Notes under the pieces: generated by a model
Told to the model about the DNA's origin: nothing
Seen by the model: only the letters and a program-made list of their open reading frames with translations
The model's database searches: none
Position numbers and translations under genes: made by a program
Part shown: one piece after another, positions 664-20,628 of the stretch
How the letters are laid out: each line of letters opens with the position of its first letter
How positions within the stretch are numbered: position 1 is the stretch's first letter
Source: a virus
Taxonomy: Duplodnaviria; Heunggongvirae; Uroviricota; Caudoviricetes
Strand: one strand, 5' to 3'
Length of the DNA stretch: 32,452 bases
IMG/VR virus record: IMGVR_UViG_2568526722_000001

Positions 664-3630
664 TTAGCCACTTAACATTCCCCCATCACGTCGCATATTT
701 AACAGATTGCCCTGCACCCGCTGATCAACCATCCCCATAAGTGCTTTTATTGCCTGAGGGCCAATCTCTCCATTCTGGCCGTCATTTTGAATAGTGATTT
801 GGTATACAGGGGCATAGGTAATATCTCCGCCTCCATTACCACTTTTACTATTAATAGCTCTGACACCAAGAGAACCATCGGAAGTTCGTGTTAATGGCAT
901 AATGGCTTCCGGACCAGCCTCACCAAAAACACCAGCCCCTTTTGCAAAAGCAAAAAATTGCGGGGAATCATAAATACCGTTCGAATACATGTTCAATGAC
1001 GGAGACTCATAAACACCGCCCTTTGCATTCGGAATAAATTTACTAATAGCACTCCCGATAGTTCCTAAAATCCCCCCAGAAGAACTGTTACTAATGCTGT
1101 CGAAAATCCCAGTAATTGAAGCCTTTAATGCTATTCGACTAAGATCCGAAATCACGGAAGTAGCGAAAGAACGAAAATTTGCCTTGCCTGTCGTGACAAA
1201 ATCACCCAGCGCATCGGTCATTCCATCAAACATCTGAGTCGTGGTTGATTTTATCTGCTCACTGATATCCTTAGTGTCATCCAGCCAGTTATTGAATCCC
1301 TGGGAGGCACCACTAACCCAGTCTCCTGCCTGAATATCGAGCTGCTCGTTTTTCTGTCTGACAATGTCTTTTTCTCGTTCCAGAGCATCATTCAGAGCCT
1401 GCATTTTCTCCTGAAAAACATGATTTGACATCCCACGGGATTTATCTGCATAGTCACGTTCAAGTTGCAGACGCTGATTGTTATATTCACGTTCAATCCG
1501 CAGTAATTCCTGCTGGCGTTGCTGATTTTTATCGCCAACCCCATAACCAGCAATCTGAATATCATACCCCTGTTGACGATTATCAATCGAAGCCTGCAAT
1601 GAATCACGCCATGCAGCTATTTCGGCGGATTCCTTGATTAGCCTGTTATTTTTTTCAATCGCAACATTTTTCTCCATCAACGCGGTTATTTCTTCCCGGT
1701 GTAAGAGAAGCGATTTCTGATCCTGGGTTAATTTCGATGACGGTCGTGACTCCAGGTTGGCAATCTGCTGACGCCACTTAACCAGTTCCTGTTCAGTGGA
1801 ACTTAATTTAACGGTTAATTCAGTTTGTGAACTTAGTAACGCATTCTGTTGATTCAGATGATCAATCATTCGTTGGGCAGCATCATCCGAATAACCTTTC
1901 GCCTTTGGTTGCTTTGGATCTTTATAACGCTCATTTATTTGAGCGATAAGATTATTATATTCTTCCTTTGAATACTGACTCTTTAGCTTTTCCAGTTTTG
2001 CAAGTTCACTAGCTCTCTGCTGCTCCCGGGTCTGATATTGTTTTGAAAAGGCATCTGCTCTCTGTCTGAGTTCAATTCCTTCCTGTTGTCGCTTGTTGTA
2101 ATCGTTTATTGATGAATTTAGTACGTCCTGAGCAATTTTTTCTGCTTGAAGTGCGCCCAATTGCTGCTTTAATCGTGCCAGCCTTTTATTTTGAGCTCCG
2201 CCATCTCCAATGCCACCTAACCCGAAAACTCCGGGTCGGGTATTTTTTTCTATTTCATCAATTTGACGGAGAACATCTGAGATTTTTTGATCAAGGGAGG
2301 CCTCACGGCCAATATCCAGCATGGAATCCCATGCCCATTTTGCGGAGTCTGCGACAGCTTTCCATGCAGTCTCAAGATAACCAAGATTTTCTTTAATCTG
2401 GTTGGTGCGCTGGATCATTGAGGATGAGTATGCTTCTGTCGCAATGCGGGCGGCCTCCTGCTGGTTCCCTTCATCCTGTAGCGCCTTAATCTGGTTATAA
2501 GTCGCAATTGTCAGAAAATGGTACTGATCATTAAGTTTTGATATGGCACTGACAGGATCCTTTGCAATTTCATTGAAGTCATTAACCAGTTGTTCGGTTG
2601 ATATTCCTGTTACTTCGCTCGTTTTTACTATCGCTGTCGTCACTTGCTCCAGCGAACTGCTCGCTACCTTTCCCGAACGCACAAGCTGGTTTAATACTGC
2701 CGCCGCAGCGCCAGTTGTCGAATCAGCCGCATTCCCGGCACGTTGAGCTATATCGGCCAATTGCCCGCTGGTTGTCCCCAACTGATTTCCGGTAAGAATA
2801 AGAGATTTATTAAATTCGTCCTGCTCCTGAGAGCCTTTATAGTAAGCCAGCCCTAAGACGCCAACGGCTGCTGCGGCCAGGGTAAAAGGATTAATTAATC
2901 CCAGCACATAAGAACCAACACCTTTGATCGCCGGGCCAATCCCACCGAACATATCTTTTAGCTGGCCGCCCTGCTGCATTAACACCATAAAAGGCGACTG
3001 ACCAGTGGACAACCCAACAACAATATCCGTCATTTGTGCAGGCAACATGCGCATAGCAAAAGCCGTTTGTTTTGCCGACATTCCGGTTTTGCTTAATTGA
3101 GATTGAGTAACCTCAAGCTCACTCCGCATAGCACGAAGTTTTCCAGAAAGTTCCTCATACATTTCAGGAGAGAGCATCCCCTTAGCTTTTGCTTCATTGA
3201 GCTGTTTCTGTTGTTCTACCAGACGATTAAAAGCAGTTCCGACAGGGTCAAGTTGAGCAATCAGACGTTGCAAAGCAGCAACCTGTTCATCATGCGCTTT
3301 TGCTGCTTCTCGCTCTGCCTGAGCCTCTCCGGTAAGCTCTCGCCGTGTTTCCTGTATTTTTCGGCTATAATTCTCAAACTGAGAACCAGTAATTTTCACA
3401 TCAACAGTGCCAATATTTTGATCACCGGTATTCGGAGCTGACGGCCCCGGTACGATATCTTCGGTTTTCGCCTCAGGCGCAACTGGCGCGGTTACCGTCT
3501 GATCTTTTGCTGCGGCGTCAGCTTTTGCGTTTTTTGCTACCGCAGGGATAAAACCTACCTGCTCACGGGATACAATATCCAGGGCGGTATAAATAGTCGG
3601 GATCAACCCGGTCAGGGTATTTCCAGCCAT
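664..3630 (-). CDS. Tail tape-measure protein (lambda gpH-like) with an atypical N-terminal region of about 200 aa
   Basis: Large coiled-coil protein. The segment [41 protein letters not shown] and the C-terminus ...[16 protein letters not shown]...[10 protein letters not shown] match conserved lambda gpH blocks. Start taken as the ATG at 3630 (MAGNTLTG...) with an AAGGA upstream; the track ORF extends to 3723 but begins at a TTG. Confidence 0.85.
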
Positions 3631-3728
3631 AATTAAATATTCCTTAAAAATTTGCGTAATTGTGAATAGATGGAGTAATGAGCTATCCAGCCCTGACACC
3701 AGCTCCCATCCGGAAGCTGACAAATGTG

Positions 3729-7102: not shown

Positions 7103-8404
7103 TTAAATCCGAAGTGATGTGACTCTTCCGGTCGGTTTGACAATAGGGAATTGCTTAACGATGAAATAACCTCCGGCATCATTCGGGTGATCATTGCCAG
7201 ATTTTTTATCAGGCTCCCCCTTCTCATCCCAGACCTGTTGCTCCAGAGATTCGGCATATAACGGGCAACGCTTCACATTAACTTTATAGCGACGCTCACC
7301 ATTGGCATTGCAGAACATTGCATTCATTGAGTTAACGCGATCTTTTACTGGCGGGTTCGAGCTGTTCACCACAACGTTAAAACCAGCCTGCTTAAGCTGG
7401 GCTATATCCGTCGTACTTGCGTTACTTGATTTTCTGGAATCCCCGGAAGCATCTGGATAAATATAAATTTCCCTCACTTTCCGGTAATCATTCCCATCAT
7501 ACAGCCAGAAGCGTTCTTTAATGATGCGGATCATATCCGGCGTATCGTAGGCATTGATGATTTCAGTTACCGCACATGGAAGCCCCAAACGCAGCACATG
7601 GACGATTCCCGCCATCTTTCCAACGTTAAAATCCATCCCAATATAAATCGGCTCCCCTGGCTGCTCCACTTCTTCGCAATTATTCAGTTTCCGGTCAAAC
7701 TGATGGTAAACAGTACCACTTGTCAGGTTAGTAAACTGTCCTCGCAGATAGGCTTTAATCAGCTCTGGAGGGTATGATTCAAGAAGCGAAGGAATGTAAT
7801 CTGCTGGCAGGTTCTTTTCATTATCGAAAGTAGATGCCTGCACCAGACCATACAGTGAGGCCAGCTCTGTTTTTTCACGCACGGCTTTAACAAACTGCTC
7901 GTAGACAAATTTGAATCCTTCCGGCGTGGTTGTAACGTCAATACCGTTGCGAAGTCCATCAATCTTATAACGCATACGCGCAATTATCTTGCGCCACGCC
8001 GTTCTGGCTTTTTCCTTCGGCAAAATGTCCAGTTCATCCACCAACGCATTACCAATTTTGAAACCGACGATCGTTTGTGGCTTCTCCATCGATCTGCAGA
8101 TAGTGGTTCCCCGATACTGGCGTCCGTAATAAAAGTGAACCTCTTTATTTCCCTCATTAATTTTTACGTTCAATCCCCAGTCAGCAGCAACTTCTTCCAC
8201 TGTAGGGTAAAAAATATCGCGAATTTGGGGATACGTTGGCGCAAAATATCCCTGATTTATACCTGGATGCTCCCAAATCCCCTTGCATATGCCGCCACAC
8301 CCAACCCATGTTTTGCCCGAGCCAAAACCAGCAATATAGGCTTTAAATTTATGGGGCATTGAAAGAAATCGCGCCTGAGGCACATTAAGCGTCGGAGAGA
8401 TCAT
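7103..8404 (-). CDS. Terminase large subunit
   Basis: Walker A motif (AGFGSGKTW) near the N-terminus and a size of about 433 aa. The ATG at 8404 has an AAGGAG Shine-Dalgarno with 8-nt spacing; the track ORF begins at a GTG at 8413. Confidence 0.85.
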   Translation of the reverse strand: MISPTLNVPQARFLSMPHKFKAYIAGFGSGKTWVGCGGICKGIWEHPGINQGYFAPTYPQIRDIFYPTVEEVAADWGLNVKINEGNKEVHFYYGRQYRGTTICRSMEKPQTIVGFKIGNALVDELDILPKEKARTAWRKIIARMRYKIDGLRNGIDVTTTPEGFKFVYEQFVKAVREKTELASLYGLVQASTFDNEKNLPADYIPSLLESYPPELIKAYLRGQFTNLTSGTVYHQFDRKLNNCEEVEQPGEPIYIGMDFNVGKMAGIVHVLRLGLPCAVTEIINAYDTPDMIRIIKERFWLYDGNDYRKVREIYIYPDASGDSRKSSNASTTDIAQLKQAGFNVVVNSSNPPVKDRVNSMNAMFCNANGERRYKVNVKRCPLYAESLEQQVWDEKGEPDKKSGNDHPNDAGGYFIVKQFPIVKPTGRVTSLRI

Positions 8405-9479
8405 CTTCATCACTCCTTACTCTGGCATCAACCACATTAATATTGATCGCCACAGGCTGGGGATGTTCATTATCTTCCACCGTTTCGATCTCTTTGCGCA
8501 GCTTCTGGTTTTCCATTCTGCGCCGTTCAATTTCCAGTTCCTGTAGCCGCTTATCTGCACATAAAGCCCCGCCAGCAGAAAGCAAACGCAACAATTCACG
8601 CCGGGCGGCAGCCTTATCCTCCAGCAGGATCTCAACGCCGAATTTTCCGAATTTTGCCCCTGCATATAATTGCCGCGCATCCCCATCAAGCAGAGTGGTA
8701 TCAGCCATATAAAGCTGTCCCGTTCCCTCACCGCAGCACTTCGGGCAGTCCGGATTGGGTATGGCGTTATCAACAAAGCCGAGGCCTCCATATTCCGGTT
8801 CGGGTTTGCCATCTCTGGAAGCCTGCGCCGCTGCCTTGTCGAATTCTGCTATATCGCGCCACTGGTAGAGATGATTCTCGCCCCAGCAATAACGGCAGTT
8901 AACACGGCGAAATTGTGCAAGCTGATTGGGGTCGGCCAGGACAATGGCCATCAACTGACTCACTAGTAAATCCAGGTCTGCGGTATAGCGTTTCTGGTAC
9001 TGATTGCGGAAGTAGCTGATAGCGCGAAAAACCCTGGCATTTCTAAGCATACGACTGGCGTTGCTGTTAGCTGTCGCACCTTGCCCCTCATAACCGGCTA
9101 GTCGGTACGCCTCTGTCGGCTTTTTACCCTGAGCAACAAGCATCGCAAACTTAGCCTGCTGGTCAGAAATGCCGAATTCATCGGGACAGAACGAAAATTC
9201 CTCCGCGTCGCCCTCATTCAGGCCCGCATCGAATACTGGCTTTTTTTCCTGAGATTTTTCGTTCCGCTTTTGTGCAGTCTGCGCAGATTTTTTCTGCGCA
9301 CTTTTTTGCGCAGTTTTGCGCATTTCTGTCTGCGCATTTTTCGGAGTTTTTTTGATGTAACGACGGGCTGTTGCGTAATTCAGTCCCCTTGCTTCACACC
9401 ATGCCACCGGAGATATACCGGAGCGGGTGTATTCAGCAATATACTCCTGCTGCAACGCCCCCCAGTCCGGTCTGCTCAT
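8385..9479 (-). CDS. Terminase small subunit-like DNA-binding protein
   Basis: 364-aa ORF directly upstream of and overlapping the large terminase. It has an N-terminal HTH-like region, a lysine/alanine/glutamine-rich repeat and an acidic C-terminus. ATG at 9479 with an AGGA Shine-Dalgarno. Confidence 0.6.
   Translation of the reverse strand: MSRPDWGALQQEYIAEYTRSGISPVAWCEARGLNYATARRYIKKTPKNAQTEMRKTAQKSAQKKSAQTAQKRNEKSQEKKPVFDAGLNEGDAEEFSFCPDEFGISDQQAKFAMLVAQGKKPTEAYRLAGYEGQGATANSNASRMLRNARVFRAISYFRNQYQKRYTADLDLLVSQLMAIVLADPNQLAQFRRVNCRYCWGENHLYQWRDIAEFDKAAAQASRDGKPEPEYGGLGFVDNAIPNPDCPKCCGEGTGQLYMADTTLLDGDARQLYAGAKFGKFGVEILLEDKAAARRELLRLLSAGGALCADKRLQELEIERRRMENQKLRKEIETVEDNEHPQPVAININVVDARVRSDEDDLSDA
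9280..9336. repeat. Five phased TGCGCA hexamers each followed by a T-tract (candidate pac or terminase-binding site)
   Basis: TGCGCA occurs at 9280, 9295, 9307, 9317 and 9331, each followed by 3-6 T residues. The array lies inside the small terminase gene and encodes the AQK-type protein repeats. Confidence 0.5.
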
Positions 9480-9482
9480 CAG

Positions 9483-9734
9483 TTAGTCCTGATTTTTATC
9501 CACCCTGAGTAGTTCGCGCAGAGCAAAGGCATCCCCTTTTCTGGCAAGCTTAAACAATGCCGCTCGTAACTCGGCTTCACCTTTCGCTCTGCCCTTACGG
9601 ATGGCCGCATAAAAATCTGTCATTGCTTCCCGATTTTCTTTCAGTCGGTTCAGATCAACATCCAGAACGTCAGCGATTTGTTGTGCAGTCATCCGGCACG
9701 CTGCCAGAGACTCGACTTTCGAATACGGAATCAT
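9483..9734 (-). CDS. Small putative DNA-binding protein of 83 aa upstream of the terminase genes
   Basis: ATG at 9734 preceded by GGGGGTGA. The stop lies 3 nt before the small terminase start. The 5' end overlaps the upstream gene by about 65 nt, so the start is uncertain. Confidence 0.45.
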   Translation of the reverse strand: MIPYSKVESLAACRMTAQQIADVLDVDLNRLKENREAMTDFYAAIRKGRAKGEAELRAALFKLARKGDAFALRELLRVDKNQD

Positions 9735-10602
9735 TTGTCACCCCCATTGATATGCAGGGTGTCTTCTTCCTGTATTTTTCGTGAAGGATTTTTACTGCAG
9801 CGTTGTTCCAGGTGACCTGATGGTGAATGCGTTTATGGCTGGCACCCATCAGTGAAATTTTTACGCACGACGGCGCATACATGACGGAGTAAAAACTTTT
9901 AACGTAGGTTCCGGAATCCAGATACAGCTCGGTCATTCCGCCGCTGTTTTTCTGCGTCTGTTTCTGCCCTAACTGGACAGCACCGATCGTCATAAACAAT
10001 TCACCACAGCGACCGAGATTCGTGTACGTATTCACATCCTCGTTAATGCGCCCCATGAATGAGAACGGTCGATCAACCGAACAGATAAAGCTGTTCATTG
10101 CCTTGCGTTTCACCCACGAAGCATGGCCGCCATTGTCACCAAGAAAATCCCCGCCCTGCGACATAGCGATGGAAAGAGCAGGTATTGATTCGTAGTACGC
10201 CAGCATTTCAGAAAGGATCGCATCCAGTTTCCTTATCGGAAAATAGGCCTGGTCATAGTTGCGATCCACCCGAAACTGGAACTCGTGATAATCATCATCG
10301 AGCTGAATGAAGTATTTACACCCGACCAGTTTTGCCAGGTCGAAACAGGCATTACGGGCGTAAAAAATTGAGCGGCGGTCACAGAAATTATCGGCTTCGT
10401 CAAAACGACTGGCGATATCGGCTTTGGAAAACACCAGCACCTGTTCACCAAATTCAGCCATGTACTGATGCCGTGTCTTATCTTCATCATCAACAACGAT
10501 AAAAATTTTCCCGGTATAGCCAGCACGACGCAACGTCCGGTAAGTCAGAACTTTGTCCGGTCGCCCGTGAGTCAGAATAAAGGCGCAAAAATCATCACGC
10601 AT
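9670..10602 (-). CDS. DxD-motif protein, possibly a nucleotide-sugar transferase-like enzyme (intact counterpart of the K-12 Rac ydaY remnant?)
   Basis: Start taken at the ATG at 10602, which has a strong GGAGGAGG Shine-Dalgarno and overlaps the ParB-like stop (ATGCGTGA). Contains IVVDDED and QLDDDYHEF motifs. The functional call is an inference from these motifs only. Confidence 0.45.
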   Translation of the reverse strand: MRDDFCAFILTHGRPDKVLTYRTLRRAGYTGKIFIVVDDEDKTRHQYMAEFGEQVLVFSKADIASRFDEADNFCDRRSIFYARNACFDLAKLVGCKYFIQLDDDYHEFQFRVDRNYDQAYFPIRKLDAILSEMLAYYESIPALSIAMSQGGDFLGDNGGHASWVKRKAMNSFICSVDRPFSFMGRINEDVNTYTNLGRCGELFMTIGAVQLGQKQTQKNSGGMTELYLDSGTYVKSFYSVMYAPSCVKISLMGASHKRIHHQVTWNNAAVKILHEKYRKKTPCISMGVTNDSVFESRVSGSVPDDCTTNR

Positions 10603-11386
10603 ATTCCTCCTCCTCACCACCATGCATGATCTCCACCATGCGCTGCGTCATCCGGACAAATCCATTTTCAATAGCCTGCTGATAATCAATGATCACCAGC
10701 GCCGACTCCTCGAAAAAACACTGAATTTCAGAGGGGGCGTGAGCGTAATAGTCCGCAATTCTGCTGAAATTAAACACCGTGTGACGTTCTGCCGCACACA
10801 GGAGGAATTTCTCAATATCAGGCTCAAGGGACGCCGAACGTATCCGGCTGATCAGCTCCTGAGTTTTCGTATCGTCGTACAGTTCACTGATATCCGGTTT
10901 ACCGCCCGACGGCTCATAAACAGGCGTATCAATTTTCGTCGTATACGGCTCCTCCTCATTTCCTGTACCGGGCAAAACATCCGTCAACAGTTCATCAATT
11001 TCTGTCGGGATGAAGCCTGTCAGGGAGACATCAAAATCAGCATTGATTAGGTCCGACAGCTCCATCCGCAACAGATCTTCATCCCAGCCAGCATTCATCG
11101 GCAGGCGATTATCTGCCAGGCGGTACGCCTTTTTCTGCTCCTCCGTCAGGCCAGACAGAACAATGACCGGAACAGAATCCATTTTGAGCATTTCAGCCGC
11201 CATAACACGACCGTGACCCGCAATAATTTCGCCCTTTTCGTCAATCAGCACCGGATTAGTCCAGCCGAATTGCTTAATACTTTCTACCAGTTGTGCCACC
11301 TGCTCAGTACTGTGCGTCCTGGCGTTGTGCGCATACGGTGACAATTCTTGTAATGGGCGATAGACTATCTTTAATTTCTCGCTCAT
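10595..11386 (-). CDS. ParB-like nuclease domain protein (full-length counterpart of K-12 Rac ynaK)
   Basis: The N-terminal region (YRPLQELSPYAHNARTHSTEQVAQLVESIKQFGWTNPVLID...GHGRVMAA) has the ParB/Srx-like signature. ATG at 11386 with an AAGG upstream. Confidence 0.7.
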   Translation of the reverse strand: MSEKLKIVYRPLQELSPYAHNARTHSTEQVAQLVESIKQFGWTNPVLIDEKGEIIAGHGRVMAAEMLKMDSVPVIVLSGLTEEQKKAYRLADNRLPMNAGWDEDLLRMELSDLINADFDVSLTGFIPTEIDELLTDVLPGTGNEEEPYTTKIDTPVYEPSGGKPDISELYDDTKTQELISRIRSASLEPDIEKFLLCAAERHTVFNFSRIADYYAHAPSEIQCFFEESALVIIDYQQAIENGFVRMTQRMVEIMHGGEEEEYA

Positions 11387-11523
11387 ACAGCCTTGCTTTA
11401 TGAATAAAACGCACCCCAGCAGCCAGTGCTACTGGGGGCGGAGGTGTTGCTGGTAAAGTTAGGTATTGGATCAATGAGTGAGTCAATATAATATTAAACT
11501 CACAATTATAAATCAGCCATATA

Positions 11524-12981
11524 TTAGGAGCGCCAAAAAAAACCTGAAAACAATATAATAACAGGATAAATTTCAAGGCGACCAAGAATCATAGCTATGC
11601 ACATTAAATATTTTGCAATGTCATTAAGCACTCCGAATGACGATGCAGTAGCCCCAAAACCTAATCCCATATTATTAATACATGCAGCCACTGTTGCAAA
11701 TGATGTAAGAAAATCATATCCCATACCATTTAACACCAGTATAAAAAACACCGTGAAGAGAGTATAAAGAAAAAAGAAACTCCATACAGACCTCATTACA
11801 CGATCTGTAACTATCTTCCCTCCTACATTTACACTCAACAACGCTCTGGGATGAGAAAGCTGATTTATCTCGTGTTTGCTTTGTTTGAAAAGTATAAGAA
11901 ATCGAAGTGACTTAATTCCACCACAAGTTGAACCTATACATCCCCCAAAGAAACTTGACGACAGCAAAAACACTATCGTGTGCGTGGGCCAGTTTGCATA
12001 ATCCTGCGTAGCTAAACCATTATCAGTGAGCATGGAGCTGGCAAGAAAAAACGAATGAATAAAACTTCCATGCAAGTCATACATACCTATATGCCAGACC
12101 TGGAAAGAGGTAACAATGATCACCCCTAAGGCTATTAACAGAAAGAAACGAAGTTCAATATCTCTGATTAAAGGTTTTATCGTTTTCCTGCTAATAACAA
12201 TATACCAAAGAGTGAAGTTGAAAGCCGATAGCAGGGAAAAAGAACCAGCCACCAGCTCAACCAAATAGTTATTAAAATATCCGATACTCTCGCTATGAGT
12301 TGAGAAACCACCAAGCGAAACTGTGGAAATCCCGTGACAAATAGCATCAAACAAAGGCATTCCTGCAAGTCTATAACAGACAATACAAGCAATACCTAAT
12401 AAAGAATAAGTTATCCACAGTGTCCGTGACGTATCGGCCAGGCGGGGAGTGAGTTTGTCATCCTTAAATGGCCCCGGCATTTCTGACTGATAAAGCTTTG
12501 CACCACCAATACCCAATAATGGCAATACAGCAACCGCCAGAACAATAACTCCTAAACCACCTATAAAATTTAACTGTGACCGATAGTACAAATATGCCCG
12601 AGGTAATGAACTAACATCATCAATTACAGTTGCTCCTGTTGTTGTTATTCCAGAAACCCCTTCAAACAGAGCATCAATGAACGTTAAATTAAGTTCTGAG
12701 TCAATCCATAAAGGGAATGCACTAATAACAGAAAACAAAATCCAAAACATTACAATTATAATAAACCCATCACGGGTACGTAATTGAATGCCAGATTTCT
12801 TAGTTGTATACCACGCTCCGCCACCAATGCAAAAAAATATAACGAAAGTTATAAAGAAAACGAACAGGCTTTTTTCTTTATAAAACAATGCTACAACCAT
12901 TGGTGGCAACATTGAAAGACTATAGAGCCAAACCAGGAACCCACACATATGAGTAACAACTCTTACATGAGATGTATTCAT
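11524..12981 (-). CDS. trkG: Potassium uptake protein TrkG
   Basis: 485-aa polytopic membrane protein from MNTSHVRVV..., matching my memory of the Rac prophage TrkG from E. coli K-12. The gene is visibly AT-rich compared with its neighbours. Confidence 0.9.
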   Translation of the reverse strand: MNTSHVRVVTHMCGFLVWLYSLSMLPPMVVALFYKEKSLFVFFITFVIFFCIGGGAWYTTKKSGIQLRTRDGFIIIVMFWILFSVISAFPLWIDSELNLTFIDALFEGVSGITTTGATVIDDVSSLPRAYLYYRSQLNFIGGLGVIVLAVAVLPLLGIGGAKLYQSEMPGPFKDDKLTPRLADTSRTLWITYSLLGIACIVCYRLAGMPLFDAICHGISTVSLGGFSTHSESIGYFNNYLVELVAGSFSLLSAFNFTLWYIVISRKTIKPLIRDIELRFFLLIALGVIIVTSFQVWHIGMYDLHGSFIHSFFLASSMLTDNGLATQDYANWPTHTIVFLLSSSFFGGCIGSTCGGIKSLRFLILFKQSKHEINQLSHPRALLSVNVGGKIVTDRVMRSVWSFFFLYTLFTVFFILVLNGMGYDFLTSFATVAACINNMGLGFGATASSFGVLNDIAKYLMCIAMILGRLEIYPVIILFSGFFWRS

Positions 12982-13118
12982 ATCTAAATATTCTTTCAAT
13001 TATAACCACCTTGCTGCAATATTATGATTATACTGTATAAAATTTAACTCCTCTTAGATCTTACTTCACTGTTCCTTATGAAACAATCATCAAAATGAAT
13101 CATATTGTAGTTAAGATT

Positions 13119-17734: not shown

Positions 17735-19564
17735 ATGAGCACTTCCGCATACAAGAGCAAAATTCGAACACTCCAGTGCGCGTTAAAAAACGGTGAATTT
17801 GAACCATTCATACAACATATCCGTTTTCCATACTTTAAAAATATAGAGCAGAATGCAAGGATCGATTTTCAGTTCCCTATAACGGCTTTAGTAGGAAAAA
17901 ATGGAACTAATAAAAGTTCTGTTATCAAAGCGCTATTTGGTTGCCCACATGGTAAAAATATAACTCGTTATTGGTTCACAACTGAAACAGATGAGTTTCC
18001 TGACCTAAAACTTGCTGATGGCAGTTCTCTTAAACCTAGATATATATATGGATATAAAAATGCTGATGGCCGTTTAGTTGAAATACTCCAAGCACGTATC
18101 AATGCTACCAAGAAAACAATCGATTATTGGGAAACAAGTCGACCATCTGTTGGTGATAACATGGAGAGTATTTCGGATGATCTGGGTGCTAATAGTAATG
18201 CAACCAGATGGAAAAAAATCAAGAAGGGATTGGTTTTCCTAGATTTCAGATCGGAAATAAGTGCATTTGATAGATGTATGTATCACTCTGATTTTAAATT
18301 AAGAAAGAAGAAGAGTGGTGTATTAATTACAAAGCAAGACTATATCAGAAGCAAATCTAAATATATAAAGAAAGCTTTTGATGAAAAGCTAAGTAATTTA
18401 AGACTCTGGGGGGCGGAAACCATTGTTAAAAATATAACCTTGGCGCCAGAACTAGTTGAGCACGTCTCATTTATATTAGGGAAAAAATATAAAGTCATTA
18501 AATTTCTTGAGCATCGGTTATTTGGAACCAGAGGAGGAACCGCTTTACTTTCAACTGATAAGTTGAACTATACAGAAGCGTTTGCTGGAAGTGGTGAATT
18601 TGCAATAGTTTCACTAATACTCAATATTTATTCGGCCAAACCTAATTCATTAATTCTTCTTGACGAACCAGAAGTTTCACTTCACCCTGGTGCACAAAAA
18701 AGGATGATGGATGTTCTGTACTCTATTGTTGAGCAGAAAAAACATCAAGTGGTAATATCAACCCATTCTCCTGTTATTGTGAACACTCTTCCCAAAGATG
18801 CCATTAAATTATTTGTTTTTGATGAAGAGAGTGAAACAGCTAAAATAGTTCAAAATATAGCACCGGATGAAGCTTTTATAGAGCTAGGGCATGATATTAA
18901 CAAGAAAACAATAATTGTAGAAGATAAATTAGCTAAAGCAATTATAGATAAAGCGATTAAAAATGATGAAAGATTAAGCTTATCATTTAGTGTAAGTTAT
19001 ATACCAGGTGGTTCGGAGACCATTTTAAGCAAGCATCTTCCCAGTTACGCTGTGGTAGAACGCAATGATATTTTGTTTTTACTTGATGGTGATAAAAACA
19101 AAAAAATAAAACCAGTAAGAATTAGTGAAATTGCTGATGCTGATTTAGTTAATACAATGTGCAAATATTATGGTTGCGAGTTAATTATCAATGCCAGTGG
19201 TAGTAATGGCAAAAAAAATGAACAAGAATCTAATAGACTCAAAAGGCAAGTGCTTGAGTATGCATTCAATAAAGTGCAGTATTTACCATTTGATACTCCC
19301 GAACAATTACTCATTGAAAAGGCAATTACGCCAAGTGAAAAAGAAATAATTGATTCACAGACCTGGAGTTCTAATGATCCAGAACTGTATAAGAATCAAA
19401 TAAGATTATTAGCGCAACACCTGTATGATAAAGAAGAAGTAAATGCAGAGGAAATTTTTTGCCTCCAACAAATGATGACCGCAAGACTTAAAAATGAATT
19501 GCCTGAATTTATAAAAATAAGAAAAATAATTACTCAGGCTCTTGACCGTGGTATCATTAGGTAG
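17735..19564 (+). CDS. ABC-type ATPase with a C-terminal TOPRIM-like domain (OLD-family / GajA-like putative nuclease)
   Basis: Walker A (LVGKNGTNKSS); a long insert; signature-like AFAGSGEF; Walker B (LILLDEPEVSLH); H-loop (VISTHSP). The C-terminal region has an invariant-Glu motif (TIIVEDKLAKAII) and a DxD motif (LFLLDGDKNKK) as in TOPRIM. 609 aa, in an AT-rich segment. Confidence 0.7.
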   Translation: MSTSAYKSKIRTLQCALKNGEFEPFIQHIRFPYFKNIEQNARIDFQFPITALVGKNGTNKSSVIKALFGCPHGKNITRYWFTTETDEFPDLKLADGSSLKPRYIYGYKNADGRLVEILQARINATKKTIDYWETSRPSVGDNMESISDDLGANSNATRWKKIKKGLVFLDFRSEISAFDRCMYHSDFKLRKKKSGVLITKQDYIRSKSKYIKKAFDEKLSNLRLWGAETIVKNITLAPELVEHVSFILGKKYKVIKFLEHRLFGTRGGTALLSTDKLNYTEAFAGSGEFAIVSLILNIYSAKPNSLILLDEPEVSLHPGAQKRMMDVLYSIVEQKKHQVVISTHSPVIVNTLPKDAIKLFVFDEESETAKIVQNIAPDEAFIELGHDINKKTIIVEDKLAKAIIDKAIKNDERLSLSFSVSYIPGGSETILSKHLPSYAVVERNDILFLLDGDKNKKIKPVRISEIADADLVNTMCKYYGCELIINASGSNGKKNEQESNRLKRQVLEYAFNKVQYLPFDTPEQLLIEKAITPSEKEIIDSQTWSSNDPELYKNQIRLLAQHLYDKEEVNAEEIFCLQQMMTARLKNELPEFIKIRKIITQALDRGIIR

Positions 19565-19587
19565 TGATTCTGGATGCAGAGGGAAAA

Positions 19588-20628
19588 ATGAAAAAAATCA
19601 AAGTGTTTGACTTCTTTTCCGGTTGTGGTGGAACCAGCCAAGGTTTCCATCAAGCTGGAATGGATATTGTTTTTGGCCTCGATTTCGACGTTGATGCAGC
19701 CAGTTCATTTCGTGCAAATTTCCCGCAGGCTGCTTTTATTAACTCGGACATTAGGTTAATCGACAACAATGCCATAAACAAGTTAGTAAAAAAACATCGT
19801 AATGATTACATTCTTTTTTCAGGATGTGCGCCTTGTCAACCGTACTCTAAGCAAAACTCAAATAAGAAAAATGATGATCCACGATTAGATCTATTAAAGG
19901 AATTCAGTCGCTTTGTAGAGCATTATATGCCTGATTTTATTTTTGTTGAAAACGTGCCAGGAATGCAAAAGTTTAACAAAAATGAAGGAACATTCATGAT
20001 GTTTTTAGAAATGCTTTCATCAAAGGGATATAGTGTAGATTATAAAGTAATGCCAGCTGCGTGGTACGGTGTACCACAGACGCGAGAAAGATTAGTGCTC
20101 ATTGCATCCAAGGATTTTTATGTCGCATTGCCTTCTCCTACACATGGGGTTGGAAATACTCCCTATTCAACAGTAAAGGACTGGATCGCTAATTTACCGA
20201 AGATAGAAGCAGGAGAAAAGCATAATAGTATTCCTGATCATGAAGCTGCACGCTTATCAGAGCTTAATTTACGTAGAATAAAATGCACTCCTGAAGGTGG
20301 AAGTCGAGAATTTTGGCCAGATGAATTGATTTTAGAATGCCATCGTAACCATAAAGGGCATACAGACGTATATGGACGTTTGAGTTGGGACAAACCAGCC
20401 AGCGGACTAACAACTCGTTGTATTAGCTATTCAAATGGACGTTTTGGACATCCAACACAAAATCGAGCAATATCGGTTCGTGAAGCAGCGTGTCTACAAA
20501 CATTTCCTTTGGATTATAAATTTATTGGTTCTTTGCAATCTCGGGCTCGTCAAATAGGAAATGCGGTCCCTCCGAAGATGTCTGAAACGATTGGAAAACA
20601 TTTGCTTAATATAATCAAAGCCTCCTAG
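19588..20628 (+). CDS. DNA (cytosine-5)-methyltransferase
   Basis: Canonical C5-methyltransferase motifs in order: I (FDFFSGCGG), IV (GCAPCQPYS), VI (ENVPGM), VIII (PQTRERLVLIA), IX (RAISVREAACLQTFPLDY), X (QIGNAVPP). Starts 23 nt after the ATPase stop; the track ORF begins earlier at a GTG at 19564. Confidence 0.9.
   Translation: MKKIKVFDFFSGCGGTSQGFHQAGMDIVFGLDFDVDAASSFRANFPQAAFINSDIRLIDNNAINKLVKKHRNDYILFSGCAPCQPYSKQNSNKKNDDPRLDLLKEFSRFVEHYMPDFIFVENVPGMQKFNKNEGTFMMFLEMLSSKGYSVDYKVMPAAWYGVPQTRERLVLIASKDFYVALPSPTHGVGNTPYSTVKDWIANLPKIEAGEKHNSIPDHEAARLSELNLRRIKCTPEGGSREFWPDELILECHRNHKGHTDVYGRLSWDKPASGLTTRCISYSNGRFGHPTQNRAISVREAACLQTFPLDYKFIGSLQSRARQIGNAVPPKMSETIGKHLLNIIKAS

Follow-up and report, generated by a model that had tools for sequence, protein, structure and literature searches.

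What do two overlapping genes do that lie just ahead of the terminase genes in a Rac-type Escherichia coli prophage? The prophage is virus record IMGVR_UViG_2568526722_000001 of IMG/VR, analysed here over its whole length of 32,452 nucleotides (nt) and called the window; it carries recET, racR, ydaS-V, lysis genes, trkG, terminase and head genes, with intR beside ttcA at its end. The upstream gene encodes an acidic protein with a ParB/Srx fold (the partner), and the downstream gene a basic protein of 310 amino acids (aa). A preliminary description, drawn from the sequence alone, had proposed that a ParB-like protein is translationally coupled to a nucleotide-dependent transferase, and that the pair may serve DNA modification or anti-defence. 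On the basis of homology and genomic context, we consider it moderately probable that the pair is a late module that glycosylates phage DNA before packaging, in a partner-dependent manner.

Glycosylation of phage DNA is a classic counter-defence. To our knowledge, it has so far always followed an enzyme that first makes 5-hydroxymethylcytosine (5hmC), 5-hydroxymethyluracil (5hmU) or 5-hydroxycytosine. Among 753 phage genomes with a homolog of TAGT (TET-associated glycosyltransferase), 288 are without known primary glucosyltransferases, and the function of these homologs was left open (PMC13216743). The largest such solitary-TAGT group has in the window a tractable E. coli representative, whose two small genes make the question of precursor-independent DNA glycosylation directly testable.

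The downstream gene encodes a predicted GT-A transferase of the TAGT family

The 310-aa protein matched Pfam family PF20691 (TAGT) over aa 8-222 with 122.3 bits (E 3.4e-35), the curated cut-off being 27.5 bits, and phrog_842 of PHROG at E 6e-104; RefSeq names it 'GREB1-related protein'. In its AlphaFold2 (AF2) model residues 1-150 were confident, and the model matched the GT-A enzymes SpsA, 6p61 (a Leptospira GT2), K4CP (chondroitin polymerase) and SunS. Glycogenin and the peptide glycosyltransferases SunS and ThuS were among the other GT-A matches. A transferase fold, which the preliminary description had expected, is present in the model.

Invariance was judged on a family alignment of 15 sequences with 61-83% identity. 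The residues G13-R14, D38/D39/D41, D102-D103-D104-Y105, N187-E188-D189 and R258/H260/H261 were invariant, and R14, D102-D104 and E188-D189 make up the R...DDD...ED(Y/F) active-site signature. The stretches VVDDED and QLDDDYHEF had been read earlier as marks of a transferase; their Asp residues are invariant, and with the PF20691 match this reading holds, VVDDED being the predicted nucleotide-binding acidic patch and QLDDDYHEF the predicted DxD motif of a GT-A enzyme. Past the end of the Pfam model the transferase has a conserved, basic C-terminal extension. Its isoelectric point (pI) is 8.0 (family median 8.85), and that of the partner is 4.5 (family median 4.65). We show here a putative GT-A sugar-nucleotide transferase of the TAGT family with its catalytic residues intact.

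Relatives of the transferase also scored on PF20691, with 184 bits for ORF2 of Lactobacillus phage c5 and 107 bits for gp22 of the haloarchaeal virus HHTV-2. Because the window protein (122 bits) and c5 ORF2 compare with only 37 bits for the T6 enzyme, the transferases linked to ParB appear to form the core of the Pfam TAGT family. No similarity was detectable between the T6 enzyme and the window family (hhalign probability 0.1), and T-even phages gave no tblastn match to the transferase at E 1e-5. The name 'beta-glucosyl-HMC-alpha-glucosyltransferase', carried by phrog_842 and by phage records, was rejected as a literal function; it is a transferred label, with neither T6 similarity nor, in the prophage, a hydroxymethylcytosine (hmC) pathway to go with it.

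A motif and a C-terminal domain form the conserved core of the partner

The partner matched PF02195 just over the cut-off (E 1.8e-6) and phrog_620 at E 8e-91, and RefSeq lists it as 'ParB/Srx family N-terminal domain-containing protein'. Its AF2 model had a predicted local distance difference test (pLDDT) score of 87. The ParB-like identity given earlier to the upstream gene is borne out by the Pfam match and by the ParB/Srx fold. A profile of 98 partner sequences matched Noc, Spo0J and ParB at 1e-11 to 1e-8, at positions 1-134 only; the homology ends at residue ~134, and no helix-turn-helix (HTH) DNA-binding domain was found in the partner. Box II reads GHGR, not GERR. The phosphate-binding residues have counterparts in the window partner (R23, R60 and N93), which are lost in 15-20% of its relatives. 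The closest phage relatives of the N-terminal domain are the N-termini of DNA methyltransferases (44-57% identity), and these matches cover the ParB domain only (aa 3-141 for phrog_498, aa 10-144 for PADLOC MTase_II), in keeping with the earlier remark that ParB-like proteins beside terminase genes often partner with DNA-modifying enzymes. One family member of 433 aa (P0272) has two tandem ParB N-terminal domains ahead of the motif and C-terminal domain described below.

A linear motif of the general form YTxKIxxPxYEP (YTTKIDTPVYEP in the window) lies in the predicted disordered linker that follows (aa 136-165, with low pLDDT at 140-150). In the 98-sequence alignment Y148 and Y157 were found in every sequence (98/98), P155 in 97 and K151 in 90, and T/S149 was near-invariant. 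The C-terminal domain is the most conserved part of the partner, and motif and domain together are conserved far more than the residues of the nucleoside triphosphate (NTP) site. By any search used, no known relative of the C-terminal domain was found; the window domain and a stand-alone Vibrio protein gave the same sub-threshold match, PF23887 (mycobacteriophage L5 gp47-like).

The stand-alone protein comes from Vibrio phages of 191 kb, in which the transferase gene lies among replication genes and is preceded by a gene for a 139-aa protein that consists of motif and C-terminal domain only. This protein has its own start codon, lacks the ParB domain and was matched at 54% identity (E 5e-42). 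These Vibrio phages, which encode the motif and C-terminal domain alone, and the conservation pattern together show that the motif with its C-terminal domain is the predicted obligate companion of the transferase, the ParB domain being frequent yet dispensable.

The pair is coupled and conserved across viruses of many hosts

Transferase relatives were sampled at 80 loci from IMG/VR and at 53 loci from one genome per GTDB species. Wherever upstream DNA was available (~85 related loci), the gene that directly precedes the transferase gene on its strand encoded a ParB homolog; the only exceptions to pairing were a contig that begins inside the transferase gene and one gene fragment. The co-occurrence across phages that the preliminary description had called for was found in every related locus with upstream DNA, and also in viruses of Lactobacillus, Nocardia and Haloarcula. 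In Lactobacillus phage phi jlb1 the order is ParB, transferase, terminase small subunit (TerS) and terminase large subunit (TerL), and in the virulent Lactobacillus delbrueckii phage c5 it is cos site, ORF1 (ParB), ORF2 (transferase) and terminase. Nocardia phage NTR1 has the order Orf1, Orf2 and TerL, and the Haloarcula virus HHTV-2 carries gp21 and gp22 as the pair, 3 kb before TerL.

The phyla with the pair include Proteobacteria, Bacteroidota, Firmicutes, Desulfobacterota, Acidobacteriota, Actinobacteria and Saccharibacteria; hosts include Enterobacterales, Clostridia, Veillonella and Desulfovibrionaceae, and a Virgibacillus plasmid has it as well. Across the relatives the identity to the E. 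coli proteins was 42-60% for the transferase and 29-50% for the partner; for the transferase this range held even in Bacteroides, Lactobacillus and the halovirus. Such very high conservation across bacteria and a haloarchaeal virus speaks for a substrate and a donor that occur universally, such as DNA and a uridine diphosphate (UDP)-sugar, respectively. Of the complete E. coli genomes surveyed (5,426), 889 (about one in six) contained 80% or more of the pair, and 1,580 contained some part of it.

Two K-12 genes, ynaK and ydaY, had been named as remnants of the pair, and only the first stands. K-12 ynaK corresponds to the first ~85 codons of the ParB gene (97.7% identity, with homology stopping at window position 11133), and the window gene is, as judged by this alignment, the full-length form of that fragment. 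No match to ydaY was found anywhere in the window, and ydaY was rejected as a transferase remnant; in intact Rac prophages it is the gene between the tail tube and tape-measure genes.

Direct reading confirmed both signals from which translational coupling had been deduced, the stop/start overlap ATGCGTGA and the strong Shine-Dalgarno sequence GAGGAGGAGGAA, 2 nt from the ATG. The program-made list of open reading frames (ORFs) starts the transferase ORF at 10623; the start adopted here is the ATG within the overlap. The overlap is retained in 59 of 64 analysable related loci (8 nt in 45, 11 nt in 14), so it is not a product of chance. GAGGAGGAGGAA sits within the codons for the acidic tail of the ParB protein, and purine-rich stretches resembling it are also present in enterobacterial relatives.

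A Bacteroidaceae locus (L108, 2970-5117) has the order transferase, short ParB, transferase. Its second transferase is a divergent TAGT paralog (PF20691, 82 bits) upstream of the partner gene, and this double arrangement hints at a two-step building of a glycan.

The pair looks like the head of a late operon

At ~50 diverse loci the two ORFs downstream of the pair encoded mostly terminase large subunits, plus portals and small terminases, and the pair was almost always directly upstream of terminase genes. At least five TerL Pfam families were represented, namely Terminase_6N (22), Terminase_3 (15), TerL_ATPase (3), GpA (2) and a T7-type. Also found downstream were DNA N6/N4 methylases (two loci), Mom (one locus) and a protein of the uracil-DNA glycosylase superfamily (one locus), so that the slot between pair and terminase looks like a hotspot for DNA-modification genes. 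The genes upstream of the pair had heterogeneous replication functions. In Pfam-labelled contigs the gene order was HNH ... ParB-TAGT-TerS-TerL-portal-protease-capsid, and the order transferase, HTH, TerS, TerL of the window is common to its enterobacterial relatives.

In the window, the intrinsic terminator of trkG lies 28 nt ahead of the ParB start codon, and no convincing promoter was found in the region between this terminator and the ParB ATG. With a terminator after trkG and no promoter before the pair, the two genes look like the first genes of an antiterminated late (packaging) operon and not like cargo expressed in the lysogen.

Two other loci had sugar-related genes nearby. In one, genes for an epimerase, a GDP-mannose dehydratase-like protein and a nucleotidyl transferase, all of the sugar-nucleotide type, lie just upstream of the pair. 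In one relative (L145 17837-20316, L146 8659-11138), four consecutive genes of the GT2 family follow the capsid gene, and these may serve virion glycosylation.

Proposed role of the pair and alternative explanations

The reading that we favour is as follows. The two genes would stand at the head of the late operon as a self-contained, translationally coupled module, their products would be made at a constant ratio and work together as a complex, and the motif and C-terminal domain would dock on the basic transferase or activate it. The ParB domain would be an accessory, like those fused to phage DNA methyltransferases or those that activate phage thymine dioxygenases on double-stranded DNA (dsDNA). 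Late in infection, a sugar derived from a UDP-sugar would be put on replicated phage DNA just before terminase packages it, and the glycosylated packaged genome would be protected from host nucleases in the next cell. No enzyme making 5hmC or 5hmU was found near the pair, so the acceptor may be a canonical DNA group or something outside this prediction. A narrower claim is that the transferase and its motif and C-terminal-domain partner attach the sugar straight to a canonical base or to the backbone of ordinary DNA, so that no hydroxymethyl precursor would be needed; this is a minor possibility in our view. DNA glycosylation before packaging is favoured, among other observations, by the charges of an acidic partner and a basic transferase (family median pI 4.65 vs. 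8.85) and by the link of the module to packaging genes irrespective of the terminase family. DNA modification by the pair, as suggested in the preliminary description, is something that we infer from homology and genomic context.

Several points weigh against such a role. No TET/JBP dioxygenase or thymidylate-synthase-like hydroxymethylase was found in the complete Rac prophage, in the complete 31.8-kb genome of phage c5, or within ±6-10 kb of the pair at dozens of loci, although the neighbour censuses covered ~310 ORFs, each census through its 25 commonest families, so that a rare or divergent hydroxylase could escape it, and divergent dioxygenases can escape Pfam models. A primary alpha/beta-glucosyltransferase that could act as a partner in an acceptor pathway was likewise not found in the same genomes and neighbourhoods. 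Every characterised TAGT-type enzyme adds sugars to hydroxymethyl-pyrimidines or to DNA-borne sugars, and GREB1, a relative with a TAGT-type domain, O-GlcNAcylates a protein (PMC7968844). In several virulent L. delbrueckii phages, Ld17, LL-Ku and Ld25A among them, the ParB gene has next to it a disrupted transferase gene or no more than a 45-aa remnant of one, so that the module is dispensable there. The model of the transferase is unreliable in its C-terminal third (aa 216-310) and too poor for use, and no experimental study of the pair was found in the literature.

The GREB1 precedent leads to a different reading, which we regard as rather unlikely, in which the transferase glycosylates a protein, either its own partner at the motif Tyr/Thr, in a glycogenin-like reaction, or a protein of packaging or of the virion encoded in the same operon. 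The invariant Y148 and Y157 and the near-invariant T/S149 do stand in a disordered stretch, glycogenin, SunS and ThuS are among the GT-A matches, no precursor pathway for a DNA acceptor was found, and one relative has four extra GT2 genes beside its capsid gene. A docking peptide would explain the invariant disordered motif equally well, however; the ParB domain of the partner is of the type fused to DNA methyltransferases, the transferase is basic, and the module is indifferent to the family of terminase, portal and capsid, so that a structural-protein target would need changing each time. This last observation also bears on the idea of a packaging accessory, in which a ParB-like nuclease or NTP-driven DNA clamp would help terminase to recognise or cut concatemers and the transferase would be regulatory or structural. 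That the pair stands strictly upstream of the terminase genes, and in c5 follows the cos site directly, is consistent with such a helper; HNH endonucleases, known as helpers of terminase, are near the pair in several loci, and certain proteins with a ParB domain are nucleases (5k5d). We judge it quite improbable, since the module is independent of the terminase type, the partner is strongly acidic and without a DNA-binding domain, NTP-site residues are lost in 15-20% of the family, Vibrio phages lack the ParB domain and have the pair among replication genes, and invariance at every catalytic position of the transferase speaks for genuine glycosyl transfer.

Glycosyl transfer to DNA could also require 5hmC, 5hmU or glucosyl-hmC that is already in place. 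The prophage would then exclude T-even-type invaders by over-glycosylating their DNA, or a hydroxylase would lie elsewhere or be too divergent to be seen. Pre-modified acceptors are used by all characterised family members, prophage transferases acting against invaders have already been proposed in the literature, genes for 5mYOX, transferase, ParB and terminase often co-occur in other phages, and the Pfam model misses many 5mYOX-like genes. The chance of this explanation nevertheless seems low to us: the terminator before the pair and the lack of a promoter make expression in the lysogen unlikely, the pair is also found in virulent phages and in an archaeal virus, the small complete genomes of c5 and phi jlb1 have no candidate hydroxylase, and hmC-dependent enzymes are not strictly coupled to a dedicated partner. 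Several phage records, finally, call the partner a 'chromosome (plasmid) partitioning protein', a function that is highly improbable. It has the similarity of the ParB N-terminal domain in its favour and nothing else; the TIGR00180 score was 36.9 vs. a cut-off of 58.45, the homology to ParB/Noc/Spo0J stops before the HTH, no ParA gene was found anywhere in the complete Rac prophage, which is moreover integrated, and the partner gene is part of the late operon. The partition annotation was rejected for want of an HTH and a ParA and for its score below the TIGR00180 cut-off.

Features of the locus and other observations in the window

The coordinates are collected in Table 1. Downstream of the pair the genes are tightly packed, with small overlaps or gaps throughout. 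Upstream, trkG (11524-12999, a potassium transporter gene) is insulated from the downstream late genes by its own strong terminator.

Table 1. Features of the ParB-transferase locus; positions are those of the window unless another contig is named.
Feature	Position	Strand	Remarks
ParB/Srx-fold partner gene	10595..11386	minus	263 aa, acidic, pI 4.5
ParB N-terminal NTP-binding-type domain and short helical extension	10982..11386	minus	aa 1-135
Invariant linear motif YTTKIDTPVYEP	10910..10945	minus	aa 148-159; general form YTxKIxxPxYEP
Helical C-terminal domain and acidic tail	10598..10891	minus	domain aa 166-~245
TAGT-family GT-A glycosyltransferase gene (predicted)	9670..10602	minus	310 aa, basic, pI 8.0; ATG at 10602..10600
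VVDDED motif	10480-10497	minus	transferase residues 36-41
QLDDDYHEF motif	residues 100-108	minus	contains DDD
DDD (D102-D104), DxD metal/sugar-nucleotide motif	10291..10299	minus	invariant in family alignment
Stop/start overlap ATGCGTGA	10595..10602	minus	direct reading; partner TGA inside; translational coupling
Shine-Dalgarno sequence GAGGAGGAGGAA for transferase	10605..10616	minus	direct reading; 2 nt upstream of ATG
Intrinsic terminator after trkG	11414..11437	minus	10-bp stem, 7 GC pairs, T-rich tail; RNA fold z-score -3.2
Small HTH protein gene	9483-9692/9734	minus	tightly packed after transferase
Terminase small subunit gene	8385-9479	minus	downstream of small HTH gene
Terminase large subunit gene	7103-8413	minus	after small subunit
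Stand-alone YxxKIxxPxYEP and C-terminal-domain protein, 135-139 aa	L139 5459-5878 (Vibrio phage pv27); also P0380		directly upstream of transferase

A stretch of ~5.1 kb that separates the major capsid and tape-measure genes in the closest E. coli genomes is missing from the window. Capsid codons 1-~81 are joined to tape-measure sequence via a 10-bp shared stretch, with the junction at 3388-3397, which gives a chimeric ORF (664-3723, minus strand). As judged from this junction, the Rac copy in the window is unable to make virions, though its ParB-transferase pair is intact.

A two-gene island (17735-20628, plus strand) lies inside the prophage on the strand opposite to the pair. Its first gene encodes a 609-aa nuclease of the OLD/ATPase-Toprim type (PADLOC HEC-04, ATPase-Toprim_I-B, AriA/PtuA-like), and its second, which starts on the final base of the nuclease gene (19564), a 354-aa C5 cytosine methyltransferase (MTase_II/DruM-like). 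In related genomes a Hok/Gef toxin gene is directly ahead of the island, which looks like a defence or restriction-modification-like module. The C5 methyltransferase (19564-20628) was set aside as a member of an acceptor pathway; it is on the opposite strand, ~8 kb off, paired with a nuclease, and without a dioxygenase.

Comparison with known systems

The TAGT family, its general association with ParB and the 'solitary' TAGT homologs are already in the literature. The 2013 paper of Iyer et al. that defined TAGT is said to have noted ParB genes in such neighbourhoods, as well as the solitary homologs. Our analysis adds (i) a strict, translationally coupled pairing, in which the transferase always comes with a specific partner; (ii) a new motif and domain as the invariant, conserved core of that partner; (iii) a fixed position before the packaging genes, regardless of the terminase type; and (iv) a consistent absence of a precursor pathway in the surveyed loci. 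If true, direct glycosylation of ordinary DNA would be a new DNA-modification chemistry, encoded in about one-sixth of complete E. coli genomes and in viruses of many phyla and of a haloarchaeon. If the target is hmC, hmU or a protein, the transferase would be an ordinary family member in an unusual context. Study of the pair would also add to the recent demonstration that ParB-type proteins can activate DNA-modifying enzymes.

The TAGT DNA glycosyltransferases (PF20691) include the beta-glucosyl-HMC-alpha-glucosyltransferase of T2/T6, which adds glucose to glucosyl-hmC DNA, and are related to the trypanosome base-J glucosyltransferase; 5mYOX-associated GT-A enzymes belong here as well (Pyle et al., bioRxiv 10.1101/2023.12.21.572611). 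The R...DDD...EDY/F active-site signature has been described for phage GT-A DNA glycosyltransferases and for the base-J glucosyltransferase. The window transferase resembles these enzymes in its predicted GT-A fold, its R/DDD/ED residues and its phage-borne gene among DNA-handling genes. In contrast, it is always coupled to a dedicated partner with a ParB and a C-terminal domain, which the characterised enzymes do not need, and no TET/JBP, C5-methyltransferase-plus-dioxygenase or dCMP/dUMP hydroxymethylase was found alongside the window pair.

On dsDNA specifically, a phage thymine dioxygenase depends on a ParB protein that lacks a DNA-binding domain (O'Toole et al., PNAS 2026, PMC13229309), and the same paper cites Iyer et al. 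(2013) for the idea that ParB directs the modification machinery. When the AF2 model of the window partner is compared with the published description of that 5mYOX-activating ParB, both have an NTP-binding domain, helices, a disordered stretch and a C-terminal domain, and no HTH. Both are encoded beside a post-replicative DNA-modifying enzyme (putatively so for the window partner), often near terminases, and in neither are the NTP-site residues strictly required or conserved. They differ in that the enzyme of the window partner is a predicted glycosyltransferase, and no cognate 5mYOX dioxygenase was found alongside it.

The ParB-DNA methyltransferase fusions of phages and prophages (phrog_498, PADLOC MTase_II), which are enriched in prophages (Kaljevic et al., PNAS 2025, PMC12704722), share with the window partner an N-terminal domain of 44-57% identity. 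Unlike in these fusions, the window enzyme is a separate, translationally coupled polypeptide of another enzyme class, and the ParB domain continues into a unique motif and C-terminal domain. With the CTP-dependent DNA clamps ParB, Spo0J, Noc and KorB, the partner has in common the fold of the N-terminal domain and the phosphate-binding counterparts R23, R60 and N93. It departs from canonical ParB clamps in having GHGR for GERR, no HTH, no ParA and no parS, in its strong acidity, and in its unrelated C-terminal domain.

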